64,000 nucleotides of DNA from a virus. Taxonomy: Duplodnaviria; Caudoviricetes. The stretch spans positions 164,842 through 228,841 of the IMG/VR virus record IMGVR_UViG_2889049205_000001. One strand, written 5' to 3'. Positions 19,361 through 46,956 of this stretch are shown here, piece by piece. Position numbers and translations under genes: made by a program. Position 1 is the stretch's first letter. Every line of letters begins with the position of its first letter. The notes under the pieces are model-generated. The model was not told the DNA's origin. It ran no database searches and saw only the letters and a list, made by a program, of their open reading frames with translations.

Positions 19361-19789
19361 TCATCCATTATTTGAGAGATGTCTCATGCTCTCGAATATG
19401 AATGATCCCTCGACGGTCATCGGATCGTCCGGCCCGTTTAATCGAACCTGATAGCTGACAAGGTATGCCTTCTGCAGAAGCTCATCGCCGAAGTGGATAT
19501 TTACGCAAGGAGTGCTGGTCATGTACATAAAGAACCGATTGCAGGCTTCGTTATTGGGGAATGCGATCGCAAGTTCTGCTTGTCCCGTATAGGATGCAGC
19601 CATATAGGATCCGTCCTGCAGCTCCGTGCCTCCGGCACCGAATGTCGTGGACAATAGTCGAGCGGAGATTGGGATCTCAAGGTCAAAAGCGACGCTCGTT
19701 ATTTTACCAGGCAAGTGGCCATAGGGCCGCTGCACCCGCCAGACGACTGGATCTCCATGAAGCCGGCAATATGCTTTAACGAGCTCCAT
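19361..19789 (-). CDS. MELVKAY-tagged protein, possibly tail-tube-like body
   Basis: N-terminal tag; C-terminus AYLVSYQVRLNGPDDPMTVEGSFIFE. Confidence 0.65.
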   Translation of the reverse strand: MELVKAYCRLHGDPVVWRVQRPYGHLPGKITSVAFDLEIPISARLLSTTFGAGGTELQDGSYMAASYTGQAELAIAFPNNEACNRFFMYMTSTPCVNIHFGDELLQKAYLVSYQVRLNGPDDPMTVEGSFIFESMRHLSNNG

Positions 19790-19791
19790 GG

Positions 19792-20142
19792 CTACTCCGG
19801 AAGCGGATCGACGAGGAAACTGTACTGCATATCATCGCCGTCCAAGAAAAAAGTCATCGAAAGGATTCTGAATGGTAGCTCCTTTTGAAGTCCATTATCC
19901 AAGAGGAGGACAGCCAATCGCTTGCTCCAATTCTCGGTCTTGCCGCTGTGCATTTGCTTGTGGACCCACTCCTCGACACGGACAATAGCTCTGAACCTGG
20001 TACCAGTGAAATTGTGATCCCGCTTGAAGCTAACGAGCTTACAAAATTCCTCGTTGATTTGCTGCACGTTATCGCTCTTGTCCGTGATCCAGAGTCGGCA
20101 GCGGACGAATGTGCTTTCCAGGTACTTCTCCGTCATCTCCAT
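19792..20142 (-). CDS. MEMTEKY-tagged hypothetical protein
   Basis: GGGGGTG RBS; tag. Confidence 0.65.
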   Translation of the reverse strand: MEMTEKYLESTFVRCRLWITDKSDNVQQINEEFCKLVSFKRDHNFTGTRFRAIVRVEEWVHKQMHSGKTENWSKRLAVLLLDNGLQKELPFRILSMTFFLDGDDMQYSFLVDPLPE

Positions 20143-20148
20143 GGTGCG

Positions 20149-20433
20149 TCACCCCCGCTTCGAGCGGATCAGATTGTCGGCGAGCATCATCAGGTAGTTC
20201 TGTGCATGCGTGATATCTTCGATGACCATATCGATTGCCGAGTCCTCTGGTGCCACATTCAGGTAATTAAGGCCGTCCTTTACTTCCTCTACTTTCTTAT
20301 GGAAGCCTGCGAACAGGTACTCAGAGGTCTCCCCCTCCCATCCACCTTTCCAGACATGGATCTGCAGCTGCTCCTCCATTCTAGTGGTGTTGGCTGCAAG
20401 GGCTGGGCGAATGGTCATGTTCTCGTTTTGCAT
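20149..20433 (-). CDS. Hypothetical protein
   Basis: GGAGGT RBS. Confidence 0.65.
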   Translation of the reverse strand: MQNENMTIRPALAANTTRMEEQLQIHVWKGGWEGETSEYLFAGFHKKVEEVKDGLNYLNVAPEDSAIDMVIEDITHAQNYLMMLADNLIRSKRG

Positions 20434-20438
20434 GAATG

Positions 20439-20870
20439 TTACCTCCAGGGTCTCATCGAAAGGCCGGTTCTGCCATCTTGAGTGTTGTAGTTAAAGACAA
20501 TTTTTTTGAACGAAAATTTACGTAAGGAAAACGGAAGCGGCCCGTTGTCCATGTTTATTCTCAGCTGCAATGGCATAAGGCGTTTCAACACGCAGCTCTC
20601 AAATCGATATATGAAGCCGCCCTTTCTGAAGAAAAGCTCGAAAGGTGTCTTTTGATTCAGGCAGCGTCGCACAAACTCATCTTCATGCTCGACGTTGGTG
20701 AAACCGGCAGCAACAGAGGCTTCTCCCTTATTCCGATCGTCGCTATGTTCACGCACCCACATCTCGAGCTCCATGTCGAAGCCGGATATGGTTATCGTTG
20801 CACGGGTAAAGCCATGTTTATCAATGGCGTTCTTGGCCACAAGATCAATATAGTTGGCGATCATCTCCAT
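20439..20870 (-). CDS. MEMIANY-tagged protein, possibly tail-tube-like body
   Basis: GGAGGTG RBS; TAATG coupling to the dnaE stop. Confidence 0.65.
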   Translation of the reverse strand: MEMIANYIDLVAKNAIDKHGFTRATITISGFDMELEMWVREHSDDRNKGEASVAAGFTNVEHEDEFVRRCLNQKTPFELFFRKGGFIYRFESCVLKRLMPLQLRINMDNGPLPFSLRKFSFKKIVFNYNTQDGRTGLSMRPWR

Positions 20871-23800
20871 TAGGCGATGTCCACCTCCCACTTCTCGTTG
20901 TCCCTGGTCATGATTGTCAGTGAGTCGCAGACCAAATCATCCTTCTGTTTCTTGCCGACCACTTGTACTTTGATGTTTTCCCGCAGCGCATCCCCATGCT
21001 TATTGATGATCTTTGAGAACACAACAACCTTGCGGACATCCTCCGCTGTGTTAATCCACATCTCAGCGTACTTGTTCCCTTTTTTGGAGGTCAGCACGTC
21101 GTATTTGAAGACAACGCCGGTCATATGGACATCCGTTTTACCTTCCGGAATTTGATCCCATCTGGACTTGATCGTAACTGATGTGCCAAGGAGCTCCCGC
21201 TCGTAATCGAGGATGTGCTTCTTGTTTGTCTGCGCCGAGATTTCTTCCCACTTCTTGTCGCCCTTTGACTGCAGGAACGTCCGCAGCAGCTGGTTGCGTC
21301 CCTTGTTAATGGAATCGAAAGCGCCAACCTTGATTAGGTTAACGACCTTGGTCTTGTTGACCTTCACGCCGTTTGTGAGGAACACGAGCGCTTCAACCGA
21401 TTCATATGGTCGCTTGCTAATGATCTCCTCCACCGTGTCCGAGCTGATGCCGGCAATACTGGCCAGACCATACCGGATGTAACCGATGCTGTCGTCACCG
21501 AAATCAATGTTCTCTTTACGCTCCGGTGTCCAGGAGGCATTTGAGCGGTTGATGTCCGGCGGCAGGATCTTGATCTTCATCTCTTCGCATTCCTTCATGT
21601 AGATGACGTTCTTAGGAATGTTCTCCTTCTTCTTGCCCTCAGAAATGGTCATTAGAGCGGCCATAAACTCAACAGGGTAGTAAGTCTTCAGCCACGCCGT
21701 TTGAATCGATAGCTTGGCGTAGCAGGCGCTGTGCGCTAGGTTAAAGCAGTAGTCGCCAAACTTTACCCAGTCAGCTTTGATTTTCAGCAGCGCTTCCTCA
21801 GAGAAGCCACGATTTACGGCGCCTTCCAGGTGCGGAACCTTCATGTATTCCGGATCGTACTTGATAATAATTTCGGATGGCACGTCGTCTTTATTGGCAT
21901 AACTGGCAACGATCTCTGCGACCTTAGCACGGTCTTGCTTGTACCATTCGCTACCGTAGATCATAAGATCGATCCATTTGCTCATGATGTCGTGCTTCTT
22001 CTTTGAAATCCCTTTACGCAGAATGTTTGACTGGCCACGGGTGAATCCTCCGAGTCGAATCGAGGCCTTCATGATCTGCTCCTGGTACGTCCAAATGCCG
22101 AACGTATCCTTCAGGATCTCTTCAAGTTCCGGCACTGGATAGACAATGCGTTCACGGCCAAATTTGCGATTGATGTAGGACGGAATCAAGTCCATAGGGC
22201 CTGGCCGGCCAAGCGCCACGATGACGGAGATGTCATCAAAGCTGGATGGCCTCATCTCCTTGATAATCCCTTGATACAGATCGCTTTCGCATTGGAAAAT
22301 GCCAGCTAGGTTCAGGGCCTGGTACACATCTTGATAGACCTTCGGATCATTGAGATCGATATCGTCAATGTCTACTACGCCCCAGATGCCGGCATATTCC
22401 ATGGTCAGCTTGATGACATCGAGCGCATCAATTTTCAGGATATCGAATTTGACCAGCAATTTTTCGATCCATTCCATATCGAACATTGTCGTTTCAAGTG
22501 CATCTTTATCAAGCCGCAATGGGACACGCTTCGTAATCTTATCTGGTGACAGAACGATGCCGCCGGCATGTGTTCCGACATGATCGATGTGCCCCTCGAG
22601 TTTTCTGGCAGCCTTCCACCAATCCGGGTACTGATCAGCATAAACCTTAACCATTGGCGTATTGACGTCATTGTAGGCCTGCTCGAGCATCGACCGCTTA
22701 TCGCTGTACGTGACCAGCGCACGTTCGGATATCGATTTGGCGAATCCATCTTGTGTATCCAAGTCAAAGCCGAGTGTCTTACCGACTTTCCGAATAGCGG
22801 AGCGAGCTGCCAGTGTGCCGATCGTACCGATTTGCGCCACACGATCGATACCATATTTTTCTTTAAGATACATCTGCACGGCACGGGCGCCGGCATAAGA
22901 GAAGTCAATGTCGATGTCCGGATATTCCGCCCGTTCTGGATCGAGGAAACGCTCGAACATCAGATTGTGCTTGATCGGATCCAGCGTGGTGATCTGAATG
23001 CAATAGCAGACGAGTGAACCGGCGGCGGAGCCACGTCCTGGTCCAACGAGGTATCCGTTGTTCTTCGCCCACTGGATGAAGTCGGCAACGATTAGGTGAT
23101 AATCGGCAAAGCCGAGTTTATTAATGACCCCAAGCTCATATTTGAGCTGCTGGGAGTATCGTTCAATTTGAGCTGAAACATCAGCGTACTTCATGGCCTT
23201 TTGGAACAAGCCGTTCCAGGCCATCTTCTCAAGAAGCTGCTCGCTTGTCTCATCCCCATTGATCGGATAACGTGGCAGCAGCGGCTTGTCAGGCAGTGAG
23301 ACATTGACGAGCTCAGCGATCTTGTATGTATTGGCGATCGCTTCTTCATCATTCCAATTCTCACGGATCTCTTCTTCGGACTTCATCCAGAACTCATGCG
23401 CATACCGCATCCGGTCTTCATCGTGGATGCATTTACCGGTCGAGGAAGCCACAAGAATATCATGAATATCATAATCGTCTTTTTGTGCGTAATGCACATC
23501 AGTCGTGAGGATCTTCGGCGTATTGGTTTCAATAGCGAGTTGATCCAGCAGGGCGTTCAGCCGCACCTGGTCAGGGATCATTGTTGCTTGTTTTTCGAGG
23601 TAGAACGAGTGAAACGTTTCTTTGCATTCCTGAATGAACGCTTTAGCTTCATCCATCCTTCCTGCGAGAGCAAGACGGCTAAGCCAACTACCCAAACAAG
23701 CAGAAGTAGCAATAATATTGGCCCCAAGATTATGGCTGCGAATGAAAGAAAGATCAGTGCGAGGGTCAGAATAAAAGCCATTGATATGAGCATCGGAAAC

Positions 23801-24340
23801 AATTTCATACAGGTCCTCCAGCCCTTGATTGTTTACGGCAATCAAGACGAGATGATAGTTGTCATACAAGAGATAATCATAGATTTCTTCACGGAACTCA
23901 GCGATCTTCTGCTCGTCAGCCGTCTTGCCCTGGTGAATCGTGAATAGGTCCTCCTGGACATTCATGATCCAATCCATCAGCAGCGTGCGAGCTTCGGTTT
24001 CGAAGTCCTGCGGATTACGTTCGATATGTCGAATGAACTGCTTCAAGGGCTTGTCCTTCAGATTATATTTCTCCAAGAGTGCTGTGCGCTTCTCTTTGAG
24101 AAACTCCCCTTTAAGAAGACGATCCTTGGTCATGTATGCTTCACAACCAGGGATCGGTTTAATGCCTTGTTTGAGGCAAGAAGATATAAAATCGGGAATG
24201 GCCCCACACACACCGTGGTCGGTAATTGCCAGCGCAGGGCTTCCGATTTCTTTTGCTCGTTCGACCAGTTCATGCACTTGCGATAAGCCATCCAATGCAG
24301 AATGTTCGCTATGCACATGCAGATGAACGTGTATACACAT
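20870..24340 (-). CDS. dnaE: DNA polymerase III alpha subunit (DnaE-type)
   Basis: HLHVHSEHS.LDG PHP domain; GPGRGSAAGS; PDIDID; KFDIL; FNLAHSACYA. Confidence 0.95.
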   Translation of the reverse strand: MCIHVHLHVHSEHSALDGLSQVHELVERAKEIGSPALAITDHGVCGAIPDFISSCLKQGIKPIPGCEAYMTKDRLLKGEFLKEKRTALLEKYNLKDKPLKQFIRHIERNPQDFETEARTLLMDWIMNVQEDLFTIHQGKTADEQKIAEFREEIYDYLLYDNYHLVLIAVNNQGLEDLYEIVSDAHINGFYSDPRTDLSFIRSHNLGANIIATSACLGSWLSRLALAGRMDEAKAFIQECKETFHSFYLEKQATMIPDQVRLNALLDQLAIETNTPKILTTDVHYAQKDDYDIHDILVASSTGKCIHDEDRMRYAHEFWMKSEEEIRENWNDEEAIANTYKIAELVNVSLPDKPLLPRYPINGDETSEQLLEKMAWNGLFQKAMKYADVSAQIERYSQQLKYELGVINKLGFADYHLIVADFIQWAKNNGYLVGPGRGSAAGSLVCYCIQITTLDPIKHNLMFERFLDPERAEYPDIDIDFSYAGARAVQMYLKEKYGIDRVAQIGTIGTLAARSAIRKVGKTLGFDLDTQDGFAKSISERALVTYSDKRSMLEQAYNDVNTPMVKVYADQYPDWWKAARKLEGHIDHVGTHAGGIVLSPDKITKRVPLRLDKDALETTMFDMEWIEKLLVKFDILKIDALDVIKLTMEYAGIWGVVDIDDIDLNDPKVYQDVYQALNLAGIFQCESDLYQGIIKEMRPSSFDDISVIVALGRPGPMDLIPSYINRKFGRERIVYPVPELEEILKDTFGIWTYQEQIMKASIRLGGFTRGQSNILRKGISKKKHDIMSKWIDLMIYGSEWYKQDRAKVAEIVASYANKDDVPSEIIIKYDPEYMKVPHLEGAVNRGFSEEALLKIKADWVKFGDYCFNLAHSACYAKLSIQTAWLKTYYPVEFMAALMTISEGKKKENIPKNVIYMKECEEMKIKILPPDINRSNASWTPERKENIDFGDDSIGYIRYGLASIAGISSDTVEEIISKRPYESVEALVFLTNGVKVNKTKVVNLIKVGAFDSINKGRNQLLRTFLQSKGDKKWEEISAQTNKKHILDYERELLGTSVTIKSRWDQIPEGKTDVHMTGVVFKYDVLTSKKGNKYAEMWINTAEDVRKVVVFSKIINKHGDALRENIKVQVVGKKQKDDLVCDSLTIMTRDNEKWEVDIA

Positions 24341-24352
24341 GAAAGCCAACCC

Positions 24353-24691
24353 CTATTCTTCCGACGAACCTCCACCGATTACTTCAAGTCCAGGCACCAT
24401 CAAAGGTGCTGCAATAATCCGGGCCGTATGTTCATCTCTCATTTTCTTGATGCGTGTTACGATCGTCGTAGCTTGTACAGCTGCACCCACCAAAAGAGTT
24501 TGGTTCAAGCTGGACGTGACAATGACGGAGCGGGTTTTCTTTCCCTGCGTAAGGTCGATGAAGCGGCCGGAGTCCTTCGCCTCTTTCATCAGGCGCTTGA
24601 TCGGAGAAGAATCCGGGCGGCTGATCGTGATGATTTTTTCGACCTCTACAAAATTATTAAATCCAACGTCTACGAACATTCCATATTCCAC
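24353..24691 (-). CDS. RemA/DUF370-family protein
   Basis: VGFNNFV..II.I..PDSSPIKRL...A..G..IDLT.G.KTRSVIV matches B. subtilis RemA. Confidence 0.8.
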   Translation of the reverse strand: MEYGMFVDVGFNNFVEVEKIITISRPDSSPIKRLMKEAKDSGRFIDLTQGKKTRSVIVTSSLNQTLLVGAAVQATTIVTRIKKMRDEHTARIIAAPLMVPGLEVIGGGSSEE

Positions 24692-25554
24692 CTTTGTGTG
24701 TATTGAGTAACCAGCTCATTTTTTCTCGTCACTTCTCGAACTAAGTCACCATTGGTGGAACCTTCAAGTACATCTGGAATCGGATCGCCCTGCTGGATGG
24801 CTGCGATAATTCGCAGCACGTCTTGGTAGATTTCGCTTCCCATATTGAATGGGATTGGATACCTCACAGCTCCATCTTGTCTCGTTGCACCGGCGTGACA
24901 GTAGATATTGTAAGGGCATTGCGCACACTTGTAGTTGCTCGGCGTATATCCTTTTTCAATCGCCGGCAGCCTGCGTTGTTGCGCCATTTCTATCAAGCGA
25001 TGAGCCTTGTTCATGAGTTGCTGACCCAGCGCCGGATCGTACTCCAGCTCGTATTCCCAGACCTCTTGGGTGTCTTTGTTTTCCACGAAGATGATTCCTT
25101 TTTTGATCCCGGTCAGGTGCATGTAGAACGTGAGCTGTGCTCGGTGTTCCTTCTTTGGTAAATTGTTCTTGACCATCCACTCAAAGCTTTTGCTGAATGC
25201 ACTTTTCAGCTCGACCAGGTAATCCTCTCCGTGAGGGTTTGCGAAGCTGCGTATTTTTACCCAAGCATCCGTGTGGCCGCTGATATTCTCCAGCTCAATC
25301 CTCATTTCCGCTTGAACCAAGATCCCCATATCCTCGAACATCTTTTCGTAACGATGGTGCATGCCGTGGCCGTTATCGAAGATCCGCATGAGCTGCGCAT
25401 CATTGGCCTCTTTGGGCACCATGATCATGTCGAAAACGATGCGCCGGTCACACATGCCGATTGTGCTTGGGTGAAGCTTGCCTCTCATCGGCCGGTTCCC
25501 GTCTTTTTGTGACTCATGATAGTAACTCTTGATCATCGGCTCCAGTACGCCCAT
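24670..25554 (-). CDS. Cas4-like PD-(D/E)XK exonuclease
   Basis: PSTIGMC, SGHTD, VELKS, QLTFY and CxxCxxxxxC Fe-S ligands. Confidence 0.8.
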   Translation of the reverse strand: MGVLEPMIKSYYHESQKDGNRPMRGKLHPSTIGMCDRRIVFDMIMVPKEANDAQLMRIFDNGHGMHHRYEKMFEDMGILVQAEMRIELENISGHTDAWVKIRSFANPHGEDYLVELKSAFSKSFEWMVKNNLPKKEHRAQLTFYMHLTGIKKGIIFVENKDTQEVWEYELEYDPALGQQLMNKAHRLIEMAQQRRLPAIEKGYTPSNYKCAQCPYNIYCHAGATRQDGAVRYPIPFNMGSEIYQDVLRIIAAIQQGDPIPDVLEGSTNGDLVREVTRKNELVTQYTQRWNMECS

Positions 25555-25571
25555 TCCATCATTCCCTTGAC

Positions 25572-25618
25572 GTAATGCATTACATATTTATTATACTGGT
25601 GAAAACAAGAGAAATCAA
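25572..25618 (-). promoter_or_regulatory. SigA promoter with operator GTAATGCATTAC at +1
   Basis: TTGATT-17-TATAAT followed by the palindrome. Confidence 0.7.
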
Positions 25619-25623
25619 GAGAA

Positions 25624-25866
25624 TCAAGGAGTTCCGATGAGATTATCTTGCTCTTTTGCGGCTTTCTTGAAGTTTGCGAATGTTTGGTTCGTGTGCAGGT
25701 CGATGGCCTGGTACATGGCCACTGGATAGAGCACGTTTTTGACCTGCAACGCCAGTCCGGATTCATGCATTTTGATCTCGTCTTGATCTACATTGCAGGG
25801 AGTGAAGAACAATTCGCCATTACGGGCAAGCGCACCAATACGTGTAACTCGATTCATCTTAGCCAT
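25624..25866 (-). CDS. Hypothetical protein
   Basis: GAGGAG RBS. Confidence 0.6.
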   Translation of the reverse strand: MAKMNRVTRIGALARNGELFFTPCNVDQDEIKMHESGLALQVKNVLYPVAMYQAIDLHTNQTFANFKKAAKEQDNLIGTP

Positions 25867-26681
25867 TTTATTTCTCCTCGCTTTCTCATGTCACGGAAAT
25901 GCTCCACCAGATCCCGCCGCACCTTTCCGATGTAAACCGGGTTATAGCCGATATCCCGTGCGATATCCTTGTCCTTGTAGCCACATTCATAATATTTGAC
26001 GAGCACCCGGCGCTGCATGTAAGACAGGTCCTTGAACAGATCCCCGTTACCATAGCCATTGAACCAGTTCTCATTGTTCAAATCATCCTGAATATCGGGG
26101 TCCAGCTGCAGCGGGTTCTCAATTGTATCCATAAGGGAATCAACAAACGGTACACGTTGTCCAGCCTGCATCATGTCAGAGTATGTAGAGCTGGAATCAC
26201 TGGCGTCGTACATTTTGGCATCGATATGATGCTTGAGGCGGTACCGGAAAGTTTTGTAGACGTATCGCTGGAATCCTGCGCCTTGATCAACATAATCTTT
26301 GGCGCAGCCAAGGAAGATCATGACGAGCTCATTGTACAAGTCGTCATACGGTATGAAGTCCTTTATCTCGGAGTCCCTATAGTCGAGCGGGATTCGTGCC
26401 CAATCGTAGTCCTCAAAGACTTTTACGATCAAAGAAAGCATCCGGTAGGCGGCGGCCCGTGCTTCTGCACTTTGATACTTGGGCCCACGCCGCAGGCTTT
26501 TCACATGCTCCGGATTGCGAATATAGCAAGACATGAACTGTCGGATGTCATAGTTTTCAAAATCAATATGTTTCTTCCGAAACAGCATGTAATATTTCAG
26601 TATGAAATACTTATAAGCTGCTACCAGGTCATCGGATTTACCCGACGCCTGGTAGGCTTTGATTAACTCGTCGCTCATCAA
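25854..26681 (-). CDS. Phage sigma-70-like factor
   Basis: DDLYNEL...F..Y...FRYRL (region 2) and LSYMQRRVLVKYY..GYKDKDIARDIG (region 4 HTH). Confidence 0.7.
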   Translation of the reverse strand: MMSDELIKAYQASGKSDDLVAAYKYFILKYYMLFRKKHIDFENYDIRQFMSCYIRNPEHVKSLRRGPKYQSAEARAAAYRMLSLIVKVFEDYDWARIPLDYRDSEIKDFIPYDDLYNELVMIFLGCAKDYVDQGAGFQRYVYKTFRYRLKHHIDAKMYDASDSSSTYSDMMQAGQRVPFVDSLMDTIENPLQLDPDIQDDLNNENWFNGYGNGDLFKDLSYMQRRVLVKYYECGYKDKDIARDIGYNPVYIGKVRRDLVEHFRDMRKRGEIKWLR

Positions 26682-27243
26682 CCATCATCTCCTGGCCATA
26701 TAGCCGCTGCTGCAGGATCTCGTCCTCATCAGCCTTGCGGTAAATGTAAAGCTCGAAGAATGGCTTTTCGCCCGGAGCGACCGTTTTGAAGTCCATGACC
26801 CTCGGCAGCGCAAAGTGGTCGTCATCGTAGATGATTTTATTCAATGCGTCCATCAGCAGCTTGAATACGTTATTCGTGTCCCGGTCCCGGCTCTCGTCAG
26901 GGAAGTGAGCGATCATCTCGACGACGATCTTCTCCTTCTCAGTCATCTGCCAGGCTGTGTCGTGCGCCCACATAGAGGCCAGTGCCTCCCACTTCTCTTT
27001 CAGCGCCTCAGCCGGCTTTGAGAGCCTGCGGCCGCCCTTGCCAGTATGAACGTAGATATGATTGACACTCGGGTATACCCCCGCATCGCCACTCTCTTCT
27101 TTATGAATGATCCAGACTTTTTCCTTGACGGAAGCCTCCTTGCCTTTGAGCATTTTCTTCACGGTATTGCCTTCGGCGTCCCGCTTCACTCTCACGCCTC
27201 GGAACTTGCCATACATCATCATTGGTAGCATTAACGGCTCCAT
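26638..27243 (-). CDS. rusA: RusA-family Holliday junction resolvase
   Basis: PSVNH.Y; RDTNNVFKLLMDAL..IIYDDD. Confidence 0.8.
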   Translation of the reverse strand: MEPLMLPMMMYGKFRGVRVKRDAEGNTVKKMLKGKEASVKEKVWIIHKEESGDAGVYPSVNHIYVHTGKGGRRLSKPAEALKEKWEALASMWAHDTAWQMTEKEKIVVEMIAHFPDESRDRDTNNVFKLLMDALNKIIYDDDHFALPRVMDFKTVAPGEKPFFELYIYRKADEDEILQQRLYGQEMMVDERRVNQSLPGVG

Positions 27244-27253
27244 GTCGATCCCC

Positions 27254-27703
27254 CTATCGCACAGTGATATTCATTTGTGGAATCAGGGCCATGGTGATCA
27301 CGACAGCCTCGCCAATGAATTGGCCGCCCGGCGCATAGCGCTTGGTGTAATTCATGTCTTTCGCAGCATACTGCTCGGAATTGATCTGGTACTCTTCTTT
27401 GGCGAATTTAAGCATCGTGGCTTCGATCAGTGCGTCACGGGTCAGGTTGACCATATCTTTCATGCGCAGCTCGTGCCAGTCGCTCTCCTCTTCTTCCAGC
27501 AGCTTGTTGATCGTGTCGCAGTATTCTTCATACGAGAGGCGGCATTTACTGCCAAGCTCGTCGAACTTGTCCGGCTCGAGGGTAAGCTCGATCGTCTTGA
27601 TTCCGCCCTCCTGCCGCTCGCTCAAGCTGACAAGCTTACTGTTTTGCTCCATCTCGTGGGTCTGGCTTTCCTTCATGAAATTCTTCTTTTTTCCGACCGA
27701 CAT
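27254..27703 (-). CDS. Hypothetical protein (start uncertain)
   Basis: AAGGAG RBS; long ORF. Confidence 0.55.
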   Translation of the reverse strand: MSVGKKKNFMKESQTHEMEQNSKLVSLSERQEGGIKTIELTLEPDKFDELGSKCRLSYEEYCDTINKLLEEEESDWHELRMKDMVNLTRDALIEATMLKFAKEEYQINSEQYAAKDMNYTKRYAPGGQFIGEAVVITMALIPQMNITVR

Positions 27704-27801
27704 CTTTCGCATCTCCTTTCTGTGCCAATCCTTCTTGTATGATCCCTTTTCCGAGATCCTCAACGATGTTTACCATCCGTTTCATTCGATCACCATCCCC
27801 C

Positions 27802-27819
27802 TGTGTAATGCATTACACA
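27802..27819. promoter_or_regulatory. Operator TGTGTAATGCATTACACA
   Basis: 18-bp perfect palindrome just after a - strand TGcTATAAT. Confidence 0.75.
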
Positions 27820-27883
27820 AAATCATTATAGCACATTATGGCAGAAAAAAAAGAGGGATTTCTCCCTCTAGCTCGTGAAATCT

Positions 27884-28786
27884 TTATTTTCCTAGCAATT
27901 TCACAAGATTGATCAATCCAGCGCCGTAAAGATCGTCTTTCCCATTCGATCCTAAATCGACAACCGCTTTGACCACAGCCTGGTGAACCTGCTCAACCGG
28001 CGGCCGCACGATGCCCTGCTTCTTCAACAGCGAAAGATATAAGGCAATTGCCCCGGCGATGACCGGTGTTGCCATGCTGGTCCCCGACAGCTCAGCATAC
28101 TGGCCAGTCGGATACGTGCTGTAAATCTCCACGCCCGGAGCCATAACCTCATTCTTCATTCCATAATTGGAGAAGGTGGCCCGCTCATAGGTAAGGTCCA
28201 TCGCCGATACGGCAACTACCTCGTCGTACATGGCCGGCCAGCCAACGCTGCGGTTCTCATTGCCGGTTGCAGCCACCAGGAAGATTCCAGCTTCGTGCGC
28301 CCGCTTGACAGCCTCGTGCATGGCCGCCGGCGGCTCCTCGCTGCTGCCCAGGCTCATGTTGATCAAATCCACGCCCTGAGCAATGGCCCAGTCAATGCCC
28401 CTGACGATCGCCTCAAAGGATCCGCTGCCGTTGTCTCCGAGCACCTTGGCGATATACAGCTCCGCATGCGGCGCCACGCCGATCATGCCGATCCCGTTAT
28501 CAACGCCCGCAATGATGCCGGCAACGTGGGTGCCGTGCCCTTTCTTGTCTACGACGCCATAAGGCGACCCGGTAAAGTCCATGGCCGCCTTGATATTGCC
28601 CTGCAGATCCGGATGCGTCGTGTCCACACCGGTATCCAGAATAGCGACCTTGACGCCTTCTCCTTTTGTCTTCTTCCAAGCCTGCTGCGCCATGATTGCG
28701 TTCAAGCCCCAGTCGATCAGTTCTTGCCCGGCTGAAGCGGGAAGAATGTTCTCGACGGTTACGTCTTGAGTGAAAAGTTGATCCAT
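27884..28786 (-). CDS. Subtilisin-family (S8) intracellular serine protease
   Basis: ILDTG, HGTHVAG and GTSMATP catalytic triad; no signal peptide. Confidence 0.92.
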   Translation of the reverse strand: MDQLFTQDVTVENILPASAGQELIDWGLNAIMAQQAWKKTKGEGVKVAILDTGVDTTHPDLQGNIKAAMDFTGSPYGVVDKKGHGTHVAGIIAGVDNGIGMIGVAPHAELYIAKVLGDNGSGSFEAIVRGIDWAIAQGVDLINMSLGSSEEPPAAMHEAVKRAHEAGIFLVAATGNENRSVGWPAMYDEVVAVSAMDLTYERATFSNYGMKNEVMAPGVEIYSTYPTGQYAELSGTSMATPVIAGAIALYLSLLKKQGIVRPPVEQVHQAVVKAVVDLGSNGKDDLYGAGLINLVKLLGK

Positions 28787-28833
28787 TGGACCCTCCTTGT
28801 TTTTCACCCTGTCCCTTTGGTTATTGTAACACA

Positions 28834-29262
28834 TTACATCCTCATAAGGTATATGAGTAAGGAACCGACGGCAACACCCAGCACAAGAGGCAATACCCCC
28901 TTGAGGAAGACTCTGAGAATTACTGCGTCATTCCCTTCGTACATGACACGGCCCATTGGCCGTATCGGCAGCCTGGAGACGTAATGCTGAAGCTGGCTGC
29001 CGTCTTCTCCGGCATATTCCTTCTTGAGTCGTATTAGGTGGACATCATTGTTGGCCATGTATCGGACCTCGCTACAGAACTCCTCGTAATCGCCATTGTG
29101 GCGGCGCTTTTCCCACTTTTTTTCAACTCGCTCACGGCAGGTCTTGATGATGGATTCGGCATGCGCATGTATCATCACATCGATCGCCCGGCGATCCTCA
29201 TACCGCACGTAATCCTTAAATACGCCTTTGCGTATTTCAATATACTCAGCTACCAGCTCCAC
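28834..29262 (-). CDS. MELVAEY-tagged protein with C-terminal transmembrane helix
   Basis: GAGGTG RBS before GTG at 29262. Confidence 0.65.
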   Translation of the reverse strand: MELVAEYIEIRKGVFKDYVRYEDRRAIDVMIHAHAESIIKTCRERVEKKWEKRRHNGDYEEFCSEVRYMANNDVHLIRLKKEYAGEDGSQLQHYVSRLPIRPMGRVMYEGNDAVILRVFLKGVLPLVLGVAVGSLLIYLMRM

Positions 29263-29278
29263 CCGCTCACCTCTTCCA

Positions 29279-30013
29279 TTACGACCACTCCATGCAATAG
29301 TTTTTGGCTGGGCATTTATCGCAGGCATACGACTCTCGTGGATAGTAATAGCCCTTCTCCATGTGCTCCTTAAAAAGTCGGACCTGTTTGTATAGGCGCT
29401 GATAGTCTTTGCGACGCCGCTCCACATAGGCATTGGTGCCGAGCTTCAGATACTCCAGGCACATGCTGTCTGCTTCTCGATTGAACATAGAGTGGAACCC
29501 GATCGCCTGCAGTGTAAGCGCCATGTCGGTGCGGTTCCAGAACTCGTCTTGCTTGTGGTTAGACGTCTTGAAATTAACGATCTCCATGCCTCGTGTCGTA
29601 TTCCGGATCAGTGGAATCTTCCCGGTGATGAAGAGGTCTGGTCCGAAAGGGATCCTGAACTCTGTGTTGACGGACACGACTTCGTCCGGCACGTACCGCT
29701 GCTTCCGGTGGAAGCTGGCCAGCATGCCAAATGCATCGAGTTCCCGCTTCCGCTGCGACTGGCTGCTGTCGAACTTGATGTTCAGCACCTTGCCTCCGTA
29801 CCAGAGACTGGTAAATTTCTGCTTCATCGACTCCATGGAAAGCATTTTGTCTTCCTTGAGCTTCATGTAAAAATAGGAGATCGTCATCAGGACCGCCTCC
29901 CTGAGCCCGTCGTTTTCTGACATCTGCATGTTGGGTACCCGGTCAACGTGCGTGAGCTTGAACTTGAGCCCACACGACTTAAAATCGTACAGTTGGTCGA
30001 TCGTAATCTCCAA
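29279..30013 (-). CDS. PD-(D/E)XK/AddB-like nuclease fold, apparently catalytically dead
   Basis: GKIPLI and IVNFKT replace G.ID and .DYKT; Fe-S cysteines retained. Confidence 0.7.
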   Translation of the reverse strand: MEITIDQLYDFKSCGLKFKLTHVDRVPNMQMSENDGLREAVLMTISYFYMKLKEDKMLSMESMKQKFTSLWYGGKVLNIKFDSSQSQRKRELDAFGMLASFHRKQRYVPDEVVSVNTEFRIPFGPDLFITGKIPLIRNTTRGMEIVNFKTSNHKQDEFWNRTDMALTLQAIGFHSMFNREADSMCLEYLKLGTNAYVERRRKDYQRLYKQVRLFKEHMEKGYYYPRESYACDKCPAKNYCMEWS

Positions 30014-30452
30014 GAATATCTCCCCCTTCTTTTTTCGACCACCCCGGCCCCCGGAGTGCCTTCATCCAGTTCGGCTGGTAGCCTTTAAAGTAAGGCTGCT
30101 TCGCCTTTTCTGCTTTCCTCTTCATCGAATCCATAGACAAGATCTCTTCGATCATTTGCTCGTCACTGATCCGTTTCCCTCGATGATCAGCGAAGTATGT
30201 GGACAGAACAATCGTGCCGATCTGAGCTGACTCTTGGATATCGACCATGATGAATCGATTAGCTGGCAGATAATCCTGCTCCAATTTCTTCAGGGCAAAG
30301 TTGATTTGCTCCTGCATGAGTTGCCGATTCTGGTTCGTGTTCGGCTTATGTTTGTAATGGCTTGTGGCCATCTCGATTGTATCGCTTGCGATCTTTAGGA
30401 TCTTGGCCAAACGGTCATAGGATCGATTCAGGTATGAAGCGACTAACTCCAT
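29979..30452 (-). CDS. MELVASY-tagged hypothetical protein
   Basis: AGGAGG RBS. Confidence 0.65.
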   Translation of the reverse strand: MELVASYLNRSYDRLAKILKIASDTIEMATSHYKHKPNTNQNRQLMQEQINFALKKLEQDYLPANRFIMVDIQESAQIGTIVLSTYFADHRGKRISDEQMIEEILSMDSMKRKAEKAKQPYFKGYQPNWMKALRGPGWSKKEGGDILGDYDRPTVRF

Positions 30453-30742
30453 GCGATCATTCGCCCTCCTTCGTCTACACTGAACTTCACGTCCATGTCG
30501 ATGTTTCCGGATCGATCATACTTGAAGTCCAAGTGGATGAAGCCGCCATATCCGATCTCTTGGATCACGGCCTCTACCTTCTCCTCCACCTCGCCGATAT
30601 ATTCACTCGTAACGACCCTCGTCTTCATGCGCAGCTCCAGCATCGCCTTGCTGTAAGCCACTCGGATTAGCTGGATCTGATCCTCTGAGGGATGTCCAGG
30701 ACGAGGCGGATTGATTTCTAAATAGCGGTTGGCTAACTCCAT
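30443..30742 (-). CDS. MELANRY-tagged hypothetical protein
   Basis: GGAGGTG RBS. Confidence 0.65.
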   Translation of the reverse strand: MELANRYLEINPPRPGHPSEDQIQLIRVAYSKAMLELRMKTRVVTSEYIGEVEEKVEAVIQEIGYGGFIHLDFKYDRSGNIDMDVKFSVDEGGRMIAWS

Positions 30743-31023
30743 GGTGACACCTCCCTGCATACAAACGCCTTGTATTGGATATCGACTATGGCGTGATCGG
30801 AAATCGGATACGCAAATCGAATGCAGTGACCAAGAACCTCATAATCAGTTTGCATGACGCCATTGACATAGGCGGTGACGCTGCCATTCTTCGGCGTTTT
30901 CTGCAGCCAGAACTCCCCTTGCCAGTCAGATGGCTCGAAACGATCTGCACAGCTGCATATTTCAAAGATGAACTGCGGCTCATCAAATGTGCGCTGAACA
31001 AGATACTCCTCTACGAGCTCCAT
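30733..31023 (-). CDS. MELVEEY-tagged protein with a small virion-type beta-sandwich
   Basis: VTAYVNGVMQTDYEVLG..IRF......VDIQY. Confidence 0.65.
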   Translation of the reverse strand: MELVEEYLVQRTFDEPQFIFEICSCADRFEPSDWQGEFWLQKTPKNGSVTAYVNGVMQTDYEVLGHCIRFAYPISDHAIVDIQYKAFVCREVSPWS

Positions 31024-31588: not shown

Positions 31589-31789
31589 CTATGCGAATAG
31601 CTGCGGCAGTTTGCGGATTTCTTGCATGCGCAGATAGGCAGCCACCAATTCAATGGGATTCTTTATCACAGGTCGTGGTGTCGATGTAAATGTGTATTGC
31701 GTGCCATTTGTTGAGTATGTATACCGCTTCCAAGGTGTCCCTCGGTGCGGCATGTGATGTCGTTTAAAATAGGCGAGTGCAAGTTCCAT
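31589..31789 (-). CDS. MELALAY-tagged small protein with a second internal ELVAAY
   Basis: GGAGG RBS. Confidence 0.65.
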   Translation of the reverse strand: MELALAYFKRHHMPHRGTPWKRYTYSTNGTQYTFTSTPRPVIKNPIELVAAYLRMQEIRKLPQLFA

Positions 31790-31804: not shown

Positions 31805-32236
31805 TTAGCCCATCTGGCGAGTGATGGCTGCTTGAAGTTTCGGATAGGGATCTTCCCATCCGTCTGGCTTTTTCACTTTTCCGTCTTCCTTGTAATGCGG
31901 CTTGCCGTCTGGCCAGAGCTTGCTCATGTTGGCATGCTGCACGATGTCCATCAGCTCTTGCGGTCGGACGCCCATCTCAACAAGGGTGCCGACTGCGAAG
32001 TAGATGACATCGATCATGGCGTCAGCCTGATCAACGACATTATCGGACTCCTTGAACTCCTGGACCTCTTCTTGGATCCAGCTCATCCGCTTCTCGGTGC
32101 GATCGGCGCTCAGCATCGTCGGCTTGTCCATAGCCGGGTGATTGAAAGCCAACTGGAAGGCTCGAACCTGCTCATAGGTAAGGTCCAGTCCGTTAAGCAC
32201 GGTGCGGTCTTGATAAGCTCCTACTAATTCGCTCAT
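31805..32236 (-). CDS. MazG-like/PRA-PH dUTP pyrophosphatase with MSELVGAY N-terminus
   Basis: EEVQEF...DAMIDVIYF.VG...VQHANMSK..DGKVKKP.GW. Confidence 0.75.
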   Translation of the reverse strand: MSELVGAYQDRTVLNGLDLTYEQVRAFQLAFNHPAMDKPTMLSADRTEKRMSWIQEEVQEFKESDNVVDQADAMIDVIYFAVGTLVEMGVRPQELMDIVQHANMSKLWPDGKPHYKEDGKVKKPDGWEDPYPKLQAAITRQMG

Positions 32237-45152: not shown

Positions 45153-46397
45153 CTATCTCGAATAATTTAGTCTTACAGCATGGAGACATGGATTTACACC
45201 GTTGTTGGGATCTGGATACAGCTTGGTTTTCACCCAAAGTGTCCTGGCATATTGGCCAGTCCACTCGTAGCTTTGCAGCGGCACCAGAGTCCCATCCATC
45301 TCTTCTTTCAACACCTCGTACTCGTAAATCGCTCCATCCAAGAGATGGTCCAGCTTAGTGTCGTAGCTGAAGGCAGAGCGATTGAGAAAGACGTGATCGA
45401 TGGATTCTATGTTGTAAATACCGTCCATGCTGAAAGGAGATAGAATGAAGCCTCCGCCTGGTTCGAACATTGTCAAAAGGACACTTATTTCTTGAGCGCC
45501 AAGAACGAATACCTTCTTGCCATTCAGATCAATTGGGTTCTTCTGAACCAGTGTGATGCGGATCTTCTGCACCGGGACACTTGGAAAGTACCATTTCTTC
45601 CGAGGTGCAAATTCATACGTGTCGATCGATGATATCTCATCCTGTGTGAATCCTTTGATCTGCTGCCACGCATTGGCGTAATGCATTTCTATGTTTTGGA
45701 TCTGGATGCCACGCTCCGGATGCGGATGAATCGTAATCGTATTGATGTTCAGGTTATTGACGAGATGGCTCGGCAGCTCTATCTCCAGAACAGCGTCTTC
45801 TTGGTCCGGCGCCGCCGAGAAGTCATAGCTGACCTTGCGCTGCCAGAAACTTTCATTGTCGCCATTAAAGGCGTTTATCACGTCATTATCGGATACCGTA
45901 CCACCGGTGTTCGTTCGGCCCACCTTCACCTTCAGCTCGGAAGGAACGATGATTTCGCCCGATTTATCATTGACCAGATGTGTCTTTGGAATCTGGTGGA
46001 TAATCGGCAGCGTGACCAGCCGGTACGCCGGGTCCACGTCGCATCGAAGCGCTGTGTCCGCAAGCTCCTGCGCAGCCGCCGGATACTTGGCTTTCATATT
46101 CAAGGCGAAGGTGGATTTACTGAAGATGGGCTCATACGGCGTTACTGCCTCAATGCCGGTCAGCTGCTCTTCCATGCTGGCCATCTTTGATTCCAGGAGG
46201 CTGATGTACTGCTGCTGCGCCGCATGTTCCGCAAGCACGATCTGGTGGACCTCTGTCAGCTGCGCTAGATTCTCATTGCTTTGCCGATAGAGCTCCACCA
46301 TTTCCAGGTACTTGTCATCTTCGTTTGTATTGTAATCGTGAGAGGACGTGGGACCCCTGAACTGGGCCCCGCCGCCTTTACTTGTAGGCATTCTCAT
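45153..46397 (-). CDS. Putative virion structural protein (paralogue family, discoidin-like domain)
   Basis: RGPTSSHDYN...; NAFNGDNESFW. Confidence 0.6.
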   Translation of the reverse strand: MRMPTSKGGGAQFRGPTSSHDYNTNEDDKYLEMVELYRQSNENLAQLTEVHQIVLAEHAAQQQYISLLESKMASMEEQLTGIEAVTPYEPIFSKSTFALNMKAKYPAAAQELADTALRCDVDPAYRLVTLPIIHQIPKTHLVNDKSGEIIVPSELKVKVGRTNTGGTVSDNDVINAFNGDNESFWQRKVSYDFSAAPDQEDAVLEIELPSHLVNNLNINTITIHPHPERGIQIQNIEMHYANAWQQIKGFTQDEISSIDTYEFAPRKKWYFPSVPVQKIRITLVQKNPIDLNGKKVFVLGAQEISVLLTMFEPGGGFILSPFSMDGIYNIESIDHVFLNRSAFSYDTKLDHLLDGAIYEYEVLKEEMDGTLVPLQSYEWTGQYARTLWVKTKLYPDPNNGVNPCLHAVRLNYSR

Positions 46398-46956
46398 ATT
46401 GACTGTACCTCCGTTCCACTTCCCCCATCCGATCGCTCAGACGCTGAATCCGGTCATGGATCTCGCTCACGCCGACCATGCGCTGGTTCTTGATAGGAAC
46501 CGTGACGGTATATTTAACATCCAAGAGCCCATCCTGTAACGCATTACTCATGAACATCAAGTACCCATTGTCGATTGAATATTGATTAGAGCCTAGCAGG
46601 GCCCCATTCAATTCTACCATGAGGGATTCAAATTGACCCGCCGCCGCACCGGGCACCAGCAGGTACGAAAGTTGGCTGGCTGTTGCGGTGAATGTTTTCT
46701 CTCCCGAATACGTAATATTTTCCACCGGTTCTTGCGATTCCCCGTGAATCCATGCAAATATGCTATCTTGCTGCTGATTTGTCACAGAATCAATGTCCTT
46801 AAAGTTTTGTCTGATATCATAGATTTCTTCTTGATGGTCGGATAGGAACTTCTCGGATTCCCGCTGCCCTCGGTGCCGGGCATTGCGCTTCATCATGTTG
46901 GGCATCTTGAGCGGCCGATCCGCCGGTTCGATTGTTTTCCATTCCATTCCGATCAC
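46378..46956 (-). CDS. Putative virion structural protein (short paralogue)
   Basis: RGQRESEKF...D N-terminal motif. Confidence 0.55.
   Translation of the reverse strand: MIGMEWKTIEPADRPLKMPNMMKRNARHRGQRESEKFLSDHQEEIYDIRQNFKDIDSVTNQQQDSIFAWIHGESQEPVENITYSGEKTFTATASQLSYLLVPGAAAGQFESLMVELNGALLGSNQYSIDNGYLMFMSNALQDGLLDVKYTVTVPIKNQRMVGVSEIHDRIQRLSDRMGEVERRYSQYENAYK

Follow-up and report, generated by a model that had tools for sequence, protein, structure and literature searches.

Tagged proteins with predicted tail-tube-like and fibre-like folds encoded outside the virion block of a putative jumbo phage-plasmid

Results and discussion

Four tagged genes and their neighbourhood

The DNA considered here is a stretch of 64,000 nucleotides from a Caudoviricetes element (IMG/VR record IMGVR_UViG_2889049205_000001), which we call the window and which comprises bases 164,842-228,841, the terminal part of a 228,841-bp (base pair) contig in a genome of 7.5 Mb (three contigs). 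We read the element as a jumbo phage-plasmid, apparently of a clade distantly related to Bacillus phage 0305phi8-36. Within it we followed up four small genes, termed A to D (Table 1), whose products all start with the same clade-specific peptide of eight residues, M-E-L-h-x-x-Y-h (the tag), and whose bodies (the proteins behind the tag) an earlier reading of the letters alone, the sequence-only reading, had likened to isolated virion domains that might serve as decoys. All four open reading frames (ORFs) are present as described there, on the minus strand; the starts of B (position 20870) and C (30742) are set by homologues that begin at the tag.

A and B are members of a cassette of four genes (B, an untagged 94-residue gene, a tagged 116-residue gene and A) that lies between the DnaE stop codon, which the B ORF overlaps by one base, and the endolysin and holin genes. 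C and D sit in a run of tagged genes that ends in a subtilisin-like protease (subtilase) gene and a strong terminator.

Sequence comparison placed none of the four proteins: no significant family was found for them in Pfam, PHROG, NCBIfam or PADLOC (for A and B, no match at E<=1 in Pfam or at E<=0.1 in PHROG and NCBIfam), nothing relevant among PDB sequences, profile searches included, and no significant blastp match among the bodies or between them and the contig's other ORFs. A word search of 5.8 billion proteins gave zero to one relative for each of A, C and D, and a full HMMER search of 1.84 billion representatives with B gave three and no more.

Table 1. Positions, within the window, of the four tagged genes and of other features discussed in the text (aa, amino acids; dN/dS, ratio of nonsynonymous to synonymous substitution rates; L numbers denote related sequences)
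Feature	Position	Strand	Remarks
A, tagged 142-aa protein (MELVKAYC...)	19361..19789	-	body predicted as tail-tube-superfamily beta-barrel with central helix
B, tagged 143-aa protein (MEMIANYI...)	20439..20870	-	body predicted as Hcp/tail-tube beta-barrel
C, tagged 99-aa protein (MELANRYL...)	30443..30742	-	proline-rich linker
D, tagged 96-aa protein (MELVEEYL...)	30733..31023	-	body like small beta-sandwich of viral tail-fibre-type proteins
Tagged 116-aa cassette protein (MEMTEKYL...)	19792..20142	-	homologues in L009, L001, L003 and L007; dN/dS 0.11
Untagged 94-aa cassette member	20149..20433	-	phrog_18269, E 1.2e-6; 93% identical in L009
Strong intrinsic-terminator-like hairpin and T-run	27852-27869	-	directly after subtilase; ends tag-cluster unit
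Subtilisin-like protease, no signal peptide	27884..28834	-	kept in 8 of 8 relatives; final gene of tag-cluster transcription unit
Tagged 142-aa protein	28834..29262	-	probable GTG start at 29262; VELVAEYI read as M-ELVAEYI
Tagged 157-aa protein (MELVASYL...)	29979..30452	-	member of tag cluster with C and D
MazG-like pyrophosphohydrolase, start M-S-E-L-V-G-A-Y	31805..32236	-	PRA-PH E 5.9e-15; homologues align from tag
192-aa comparator gene in virion block, between PHROG virion structural proteins	46378..46956	-	positional counterpart of 0305phi8-36 virion protein gp174

Predicted folds of A and B

At the level of predicted structure, an Hcp/tail-tube fold is well supported for B. Modelled from an alignment of four sequences, B has a best predicted local distance difference test score (pLDDT) of 74.9 and a predicted template modelling score (pTM) of 0.70, and all five models agree (pLDDT 63-75). 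The top Foldseek matches are Hcp proteins of type VI secretion systems (T6SS), in a list that includes the SPR tail tube protein complexed with DSR2; a fold search of the ESM Atlas returned T6SS_HCP at template modelling (TM) scores of 0.60/0.60 and TssD at 0.57/0.61; and Hcp ranks top in an unbiased search of 48,161 chains.

For A, a tube fold is probable, not certain. The AlphaFold2 model was built from an alignment of two sequences, and the best of the five models, which span pLDDT 63 to 30, has a pLDDT of 63 and a pTM of 0.55. Its layout is three to four strands, a helix at residues 80-92 and then three further strands, preceded by the tag and linker (residues 1-23), which are disordered. 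Nearly all of the matches listed by Foldseek against PDB are tail tube, tube initiator, tail terminator, Hcp and contractile-injection-system tube proteins (best E 2e-4). In BFVD there are 28 matches at E<=1e-3, the named ones being Dit-like, tail completion, sheath stabiliser, TP901-1 major tail and tail terminator proteins, and the ESM Atlas's own model of A has neighbour clusters annotated as TssD, Phage_tube_2, Phi812_tail_tube and Dit (TM 0.50-0.57).

Both predicted structures are a beta-sandwich or barrel with one helix between strands and match solved structures of the tube/Hcp superfamily (tube, tube initiator, terminator, the Dit N-terminal domain and T6SS Hcp). They differ from the known members of that superfamily in having no profile match to the curated tube/Hcp families (Pfam, PHROG, NCBIfam), in lying far from the tail module, in carrying the tag helix, in not being conserved across the clade and in standing at the small end of the range of sizes. 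A and B were rejected as paralogues of each other: their hhalign score of 27 falls in the range (20-28) that unrelated tagged proteins reach through the tag alone, and profile comparison finds nothing shared beyond the tag.

We regard as very unlikely the possibility that these likenesses are modelling artefacts, with shallow alignments of two to four sequences concealing orphan folds unrelated to virion proteins. The fall of the A models to low pLDDT, TM scores of just 0.35-0.6 and the failure of all sequence and profile methods to connect any of the bodies with a virion family would fit such an artefact, but the models of A from AlphaFold2 and from the ESM Atlas fall into the same fold family, and for B the five models agree and Hcp heads the unbiased search. 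Doubtful as well is the alternative that A and B are ligand-binding modules akin to PilZ or split barrels, with nucleotides or other small molecules as the ligands bound or sequestered, in which case the tube likeness would reflect a common barrel arrangement.

A and B are not the ordinary tail subunits

The tagged genes had been described as lying away from the structural block, and this is borne out by the position of the element's own tail genes. These were found by way of 0305phi8-36 gp136-143 and comprise a sheath of 922 residues, a tube of 241, a tube paralogue of 170 and their neighbours; the Pfam sheath family PF04984 has no match across the genome, and the sheath was located through 0305phi8-36 gp139 instead. 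Sheath, tube and paralogue map to roughly 62-70 kb on the contig, and A and B to 184-186 kb, more than 100 kb away, between dnaE and endolysin and not by sheath, chaperone or tape-measure genes. The possibility that A or B is a copy of either tube gene was rejected, since both families, compared with the two tube genes by hhalign, scored just 9-14. Both families are confined to the nearest relatives, in contrast to the structural gene 46378-46956, which has a match in every one of five relatives searched, and a six-frame search of three complete related genomes found no match to A. With the real sheath and tube genes so distant, the families so restricted and no relation to the tube genes, A and B are, as far as sequence can tell, not the ordinary tail subunits of this phage.

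The cassette has the same layout in three relatives (L009, L027 and L001, in which the counterparts of A are 87%, 42% and 26% identical), and each of the four members of the A family lies directly upstream of endolysin; in more distant relatives the slot is occupied by other tagged ORFs, of 110-190 residues. Of the cassette members, the 116-residue protein is the one present in the largest number of relatives, and Pfam shows just weak, sub-threshold PAS matches for it. Measured against L009, dN/dS is 0.07 for A and 0.03-0.11 for its neighbours, indicating that these are selected coding genes, and by this estimate A is under purifying selection; ribosome-binding sites lie upstream. B forms a sharp trough of divergence (62% nucleotide identity, compared with 82-92% in the flanking genes); it diverges fast, and the pattern may be the signature of an arms race. 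The tagged genes of the cluster are 36-57% identical to those of L002, and core genes 73-85%.

One N-terminal peptide on unrelated bodies

Twenty-eight ORFs of the contig begin with M-[E/D/N]-[L/M]-[V/I/A/T]-x-x-Y-[L/I/M...], with positions 1, 2, 3, 7 and 8 conserved, at a density of 83 per Mb on the contig as against 1.7 per Mb on the chromosome. The DNA pattern of the tag has 3-11 exact matches in each of seven related contigs and 0 in reversed controls, and a pattern scan of 0305phi8-36 and of Moorella phage MTATph1 found no occurrence. Because the tag codons differ synonymously among relatives, conservation is at the peptide level. A linker with proline often follows the tag, and some proteins carry the tag twice; in the B model it forms a helix (residues 2-18). 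The tagged bodies are unrelated by blastp, except for one paralogous pair in the tag array.

Several details of gene structure go with the tag. For the long ORF at 28834-29433 the probable start is GTG 29262, at which the L006 homologue starts exactly and which also eliminates most of the overlap with the Cas4-like gene. In L001 (3504-3989) a single 161-residue frame fuses the counterparts of a double-tag 66-residue ORF (31589-31789 of the window) and of C, giving three tag copies. C, D and a 189-residue ORF end in W-S or W-S-S because the genes overlap the next gene's tag by 10-13 nucleotides (window 30733-30742, 30443-30452 and 31011-31023); for example, ATGGAGCTAG, when the reading frame starts one base further on, reads TGG AGC TAG. 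T invariably stands second in the tag leucine codon, and the upstream gene therefore often takes its stop codon from the tag.

Two tagged proteins encoded elsewhere on the element (contig C3), outside the window and both on the minus strand, have recognisable likenesses. One, of 146 residues (L015:1854-2294; C3 95353-95793), carries a Tad2-like anti-Thoeris domain (PF11195; Thoeris anti-defence 2) that passes the Pfam cut-off (29.6 bits vs 25, E 1e-6). The other is a stand-alone protein of 237 residues (L015:545-1258; C3 94044-94757) with a weak likeness to the terminase large-subunit ATPase (Pfam E 1.3e-3, below the cut-off; PHROG TerL E 8e-5).

In two relatives the slot between dnaE and endolysin holds tagged dUTPases (L004:14575-15147 and L008:16965-17480, with starts MELTQPYL and MELTIEYL; Pfam dUTPase E 8e-25 and 1e-28, respectively). 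Judged by domain likeness, the tagged set is a mixture of virion- or packaging-type modules, one counter-defence-type domain and ordinary nucleotide enzymes.

This composition bears on a further explanation, which we consider unlikely, namely that the tagged proteins serve the phage's own virion as extra components or help in its assembly (tube initiator, terminator, adaptor or tail chaperone) and that the tag is a signal for their incorporation into virion or capsid. Jumbo phages may encode auxiliary virion parts outside the main module, and the likeness of A to tube initiators, terminators and Dit is among its best structural matches (PDB, VIA and BFVD); the tag is absent, however, from the start of every virion protein that PHROG recognises in the window, and the tagged enzymes and the Tad2-like protein are not tail parts. 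The place of A just ahead of the late lysis genes, without an intervening terminator, and the synteny of the cassette in the four nearest relatives would also suit an auxiliary virion role, but most relatives retain the same virion genes and have no member of the A and B families, and A and B evolve much faster than the structural genes do. A last point in its favour is that a short peptide on unrelated bodies recalls the internal proteins IPI-III of phage T4, which are small, unrelated and fast-evolving, share an N-terminal capsid-targeting sequence and in some cases have anti-defence roles. The likeness to the tagged set of this large phage lies in that single N-terminal peptide; the difference is that the tag here is also found on enzymes, and sometimes twice in one protein.

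C, D and the comparator gene

C had been likened by eye to sheath or gp25 domains. Inspection by eye gives two helices and three strands after the tag and linker, and C has two homologues (27-38% identity); in comparisons with gp25-like and sheath families there was no Pfam, PHROG or NCBIfam match and no PDB sequence match.

For D, which has one homologue (36% identical, in L002), the structural evidence is a pre-existing ESM Atlas model, not one built in this analysis (pLDDT 0.73). Its neighbours, nearly all viral, reach TM 0.62-0.76 over 72-88 residues and are annotated as DUF2460/Phage_connect_1, Gp53-like_C/YomF_N, DUF4183, T7 tail-fibre N-terminal, collagen-like and PTL_trimer. Those neighbour clusters in which 18-40% of members carry DUF4183 have TM 0.62-0.66, with predictions on both sides of the comparison, and in Pfam the match of D to DUF4183 (PF13799) is below the gathering score (E 0.23; 11.7 bits vs 25.1). 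In this predicted structure D looks like a tail-fibre-type beta-sandwich in general, not a copy of the product of 46378-46956. It differs from the DUF4183, DUF2460 and T7 tail-fibre N-terminal modules in being a stand-alone tagged protein and not part of a fibre.

The motif [VIL]NG..Q..Y...G..I.F...Y had suggested a link between D and the comparator gene 46378-46956, and both indeed contain it; looser variants occur in a 102-residue ORF (with weak DUF2460 and virion-PHROG matches) and inside a 2193-residue ORF of the element. That the two share the same module is not supported: BLASTP gives E 1.6 and hhalign of the families a probability of 4%, out of register. Each of five relatives searched has a match to the comparator, at 45-59% identity in four of them and more weakly, at about 30% overall, in the fifth, in whose copy the central module is lacking; a pattern scan of the viral contigs for it gave nothing, and a six-frame search of related genomes succeeded. 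The part of the comparator that follows the same loose motif as D is its central module (about residues 80-155), which has an N-terminal region before it and a C-terminal coiled coil after it. This module is missing from the homologue in the complete relative G003 (L023) and so behaves as a discrete insertable domain. What stands of the claim that the tagged bodies resemble virion domains is the predicted tube/Hcp likeness of A and B and, loosely, the fibre-type likeness of D; the link from D to the comparator does not.

Candidate look-alikes of virion parts

We tentatively propose, with a probability of roughly 0.35, that A, B and D are accessory proteins that look like virion parts, would not assemble and would instead occupy partners that bind tube or fibre surfaces. 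The bodies (barrels in A and B, a sandwich in D) may sit behind a docking helix formed by the tag and a flexible linker, and would each display a tube-like or fibre-like surface without assembling. That surface could occupy a protein whose normal role is to bind surfaces of this kind, whether a host sensor that recognises the tail-tube fold or the tail-assembly interface of a rival phage, and the common tag might bring the tagged proteins to a single shared partner, which would control where they reside or how long they last.

Tail tube protein triggers DSR2 (PMC10981675, PMC11087589), and the Avs16 sensor contacts the tube beta-hairpin (PMC13581612). A role in conflict is plausible because the tail-tube fold is sensed by DSR2 and Avs16, B evolves fast and a Tad2-like protein shares the tag; a decoy or poison function may be suggested by analogy, on these circumstantial grounds, and the tagged terminase-like protein would fit it too. 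Neither of the two outcomes named beforehand as counting against the sequence-only reading occurred: the predicted folds of A, B and D are of virion type and not unrelated to virion proteins, and A and B, with a separate sheath and tube and restricted families, are not ordinary tail subunits. We regard the observation as a whole as partly confirmed and the interpretation first put on it, that tagged mimics decoy immune sensors or poison the assembly of competing phages, as partly supported.

Four points weigh against a simple decoy. The tag does not mark decoys as such, since ordinary enzymes carry it (dUTPase in relatives, the MazG-like enzyme here). A faithful mimic of the tube would be expected to trigger a sensor, not to block it. 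Our literature search found sensors of the tail tube and no description of phage decoys of structural proteins. A search of the host genome for DSR2 found none, the sole SIR2_2-domain protein being of PADLOC candidate defence family PDC-S65.

The nearest published logic is that of DSAD1, the anti-DSR2 protein of phage SPbeta (PMC10981675, PMC11087589), likewise a small phage accessory protein tied to a host tail-tube sensor. The cases differ in that the host here is without DSR2 and that DSAD1 is not described as a tube mimic in those papers; a fold for DSAD1, sought in a DSR2 paper, was not found.

A more elaborate version seems to us quite unlikely, in which the tagged proteins form an arsenal of baits. 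Modules of the conserved proteome (the tube barrel twice, the fibre beta-sandwich and the terminase ATPase) would have been copied out of the virion as baits for DSR2 or Avs sensors, and the tag helix would link the baits, along with sponges and enzymes that degrade nucleotides, to a common handler, for example the intracellular subtilase of the phage itself, so that a bound sensor would be neutralised and not activated. The subtilase is context and not a demonstrated partner of the tagged proteins, and a strict link between tag and subtilase was rejected, because both the subtilase and the gene order recur in Moorella phage MTATph1, which is without tags. The probability left over from these readings goes to something else.

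Bacterial immune receptors recognise conserved folds of phage structural proteins, the tail tube included. Stand-alone, fast-evolving proteins with predicted tube and fibre folds, encoded outside the virion module and bearing one address peptide, offer a concrete candidate, open to testing, for a route by which phages evade such fold-based recognition. Should the decoy idea fail, A and B would still represent a previously undescribed class of Hcp-fold proteins of Gram-positive phages, with a role away from the tail, and the tagged set offers a handle on the tag itself.

The element and its relatives

The virion proteins of the contig have distant matches (25-28% identity) to those of 0305phi8-36 and MTATph1, and the three share a gene order: virion block, primase, helicase, small genes, subtilase, resolvase, sigma-like regulator, Cas4-like nuclease and DnaE. 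A megablast search of the whole window against 50,697 phage records found no match. DnaE is 54-84% identical in eight IMG/VR contigs (13-216 kb) and one Bacillus thuringiensis plasmid, and the core genes from RNR through DnaE are present in eight of eight relatives (32-87% identity). The B. thuringiensis plasmid (p1, NZ_CP186315.1, 145 kb; L025) has a DnaE that is 55% identical, together with subtilase and sigma-like genes, and looks like a decayed relative; its slot after dnaE holds only short ORF remnants and is uninformative.

In three relatives (L005, L007 and L008) dnaE is broken into two or three ORFs with gaps of 0.4-3.5 kb, which suggests inteins or homing-endonuclease insertions. The PDC-S65 protein of the host genome is encoded on the second replicon, C2 (71809-73575; L018:1123-2889); it has 588 residues with a SIR2_2 domain and matches its PADLOC family at E 1.5e-187.

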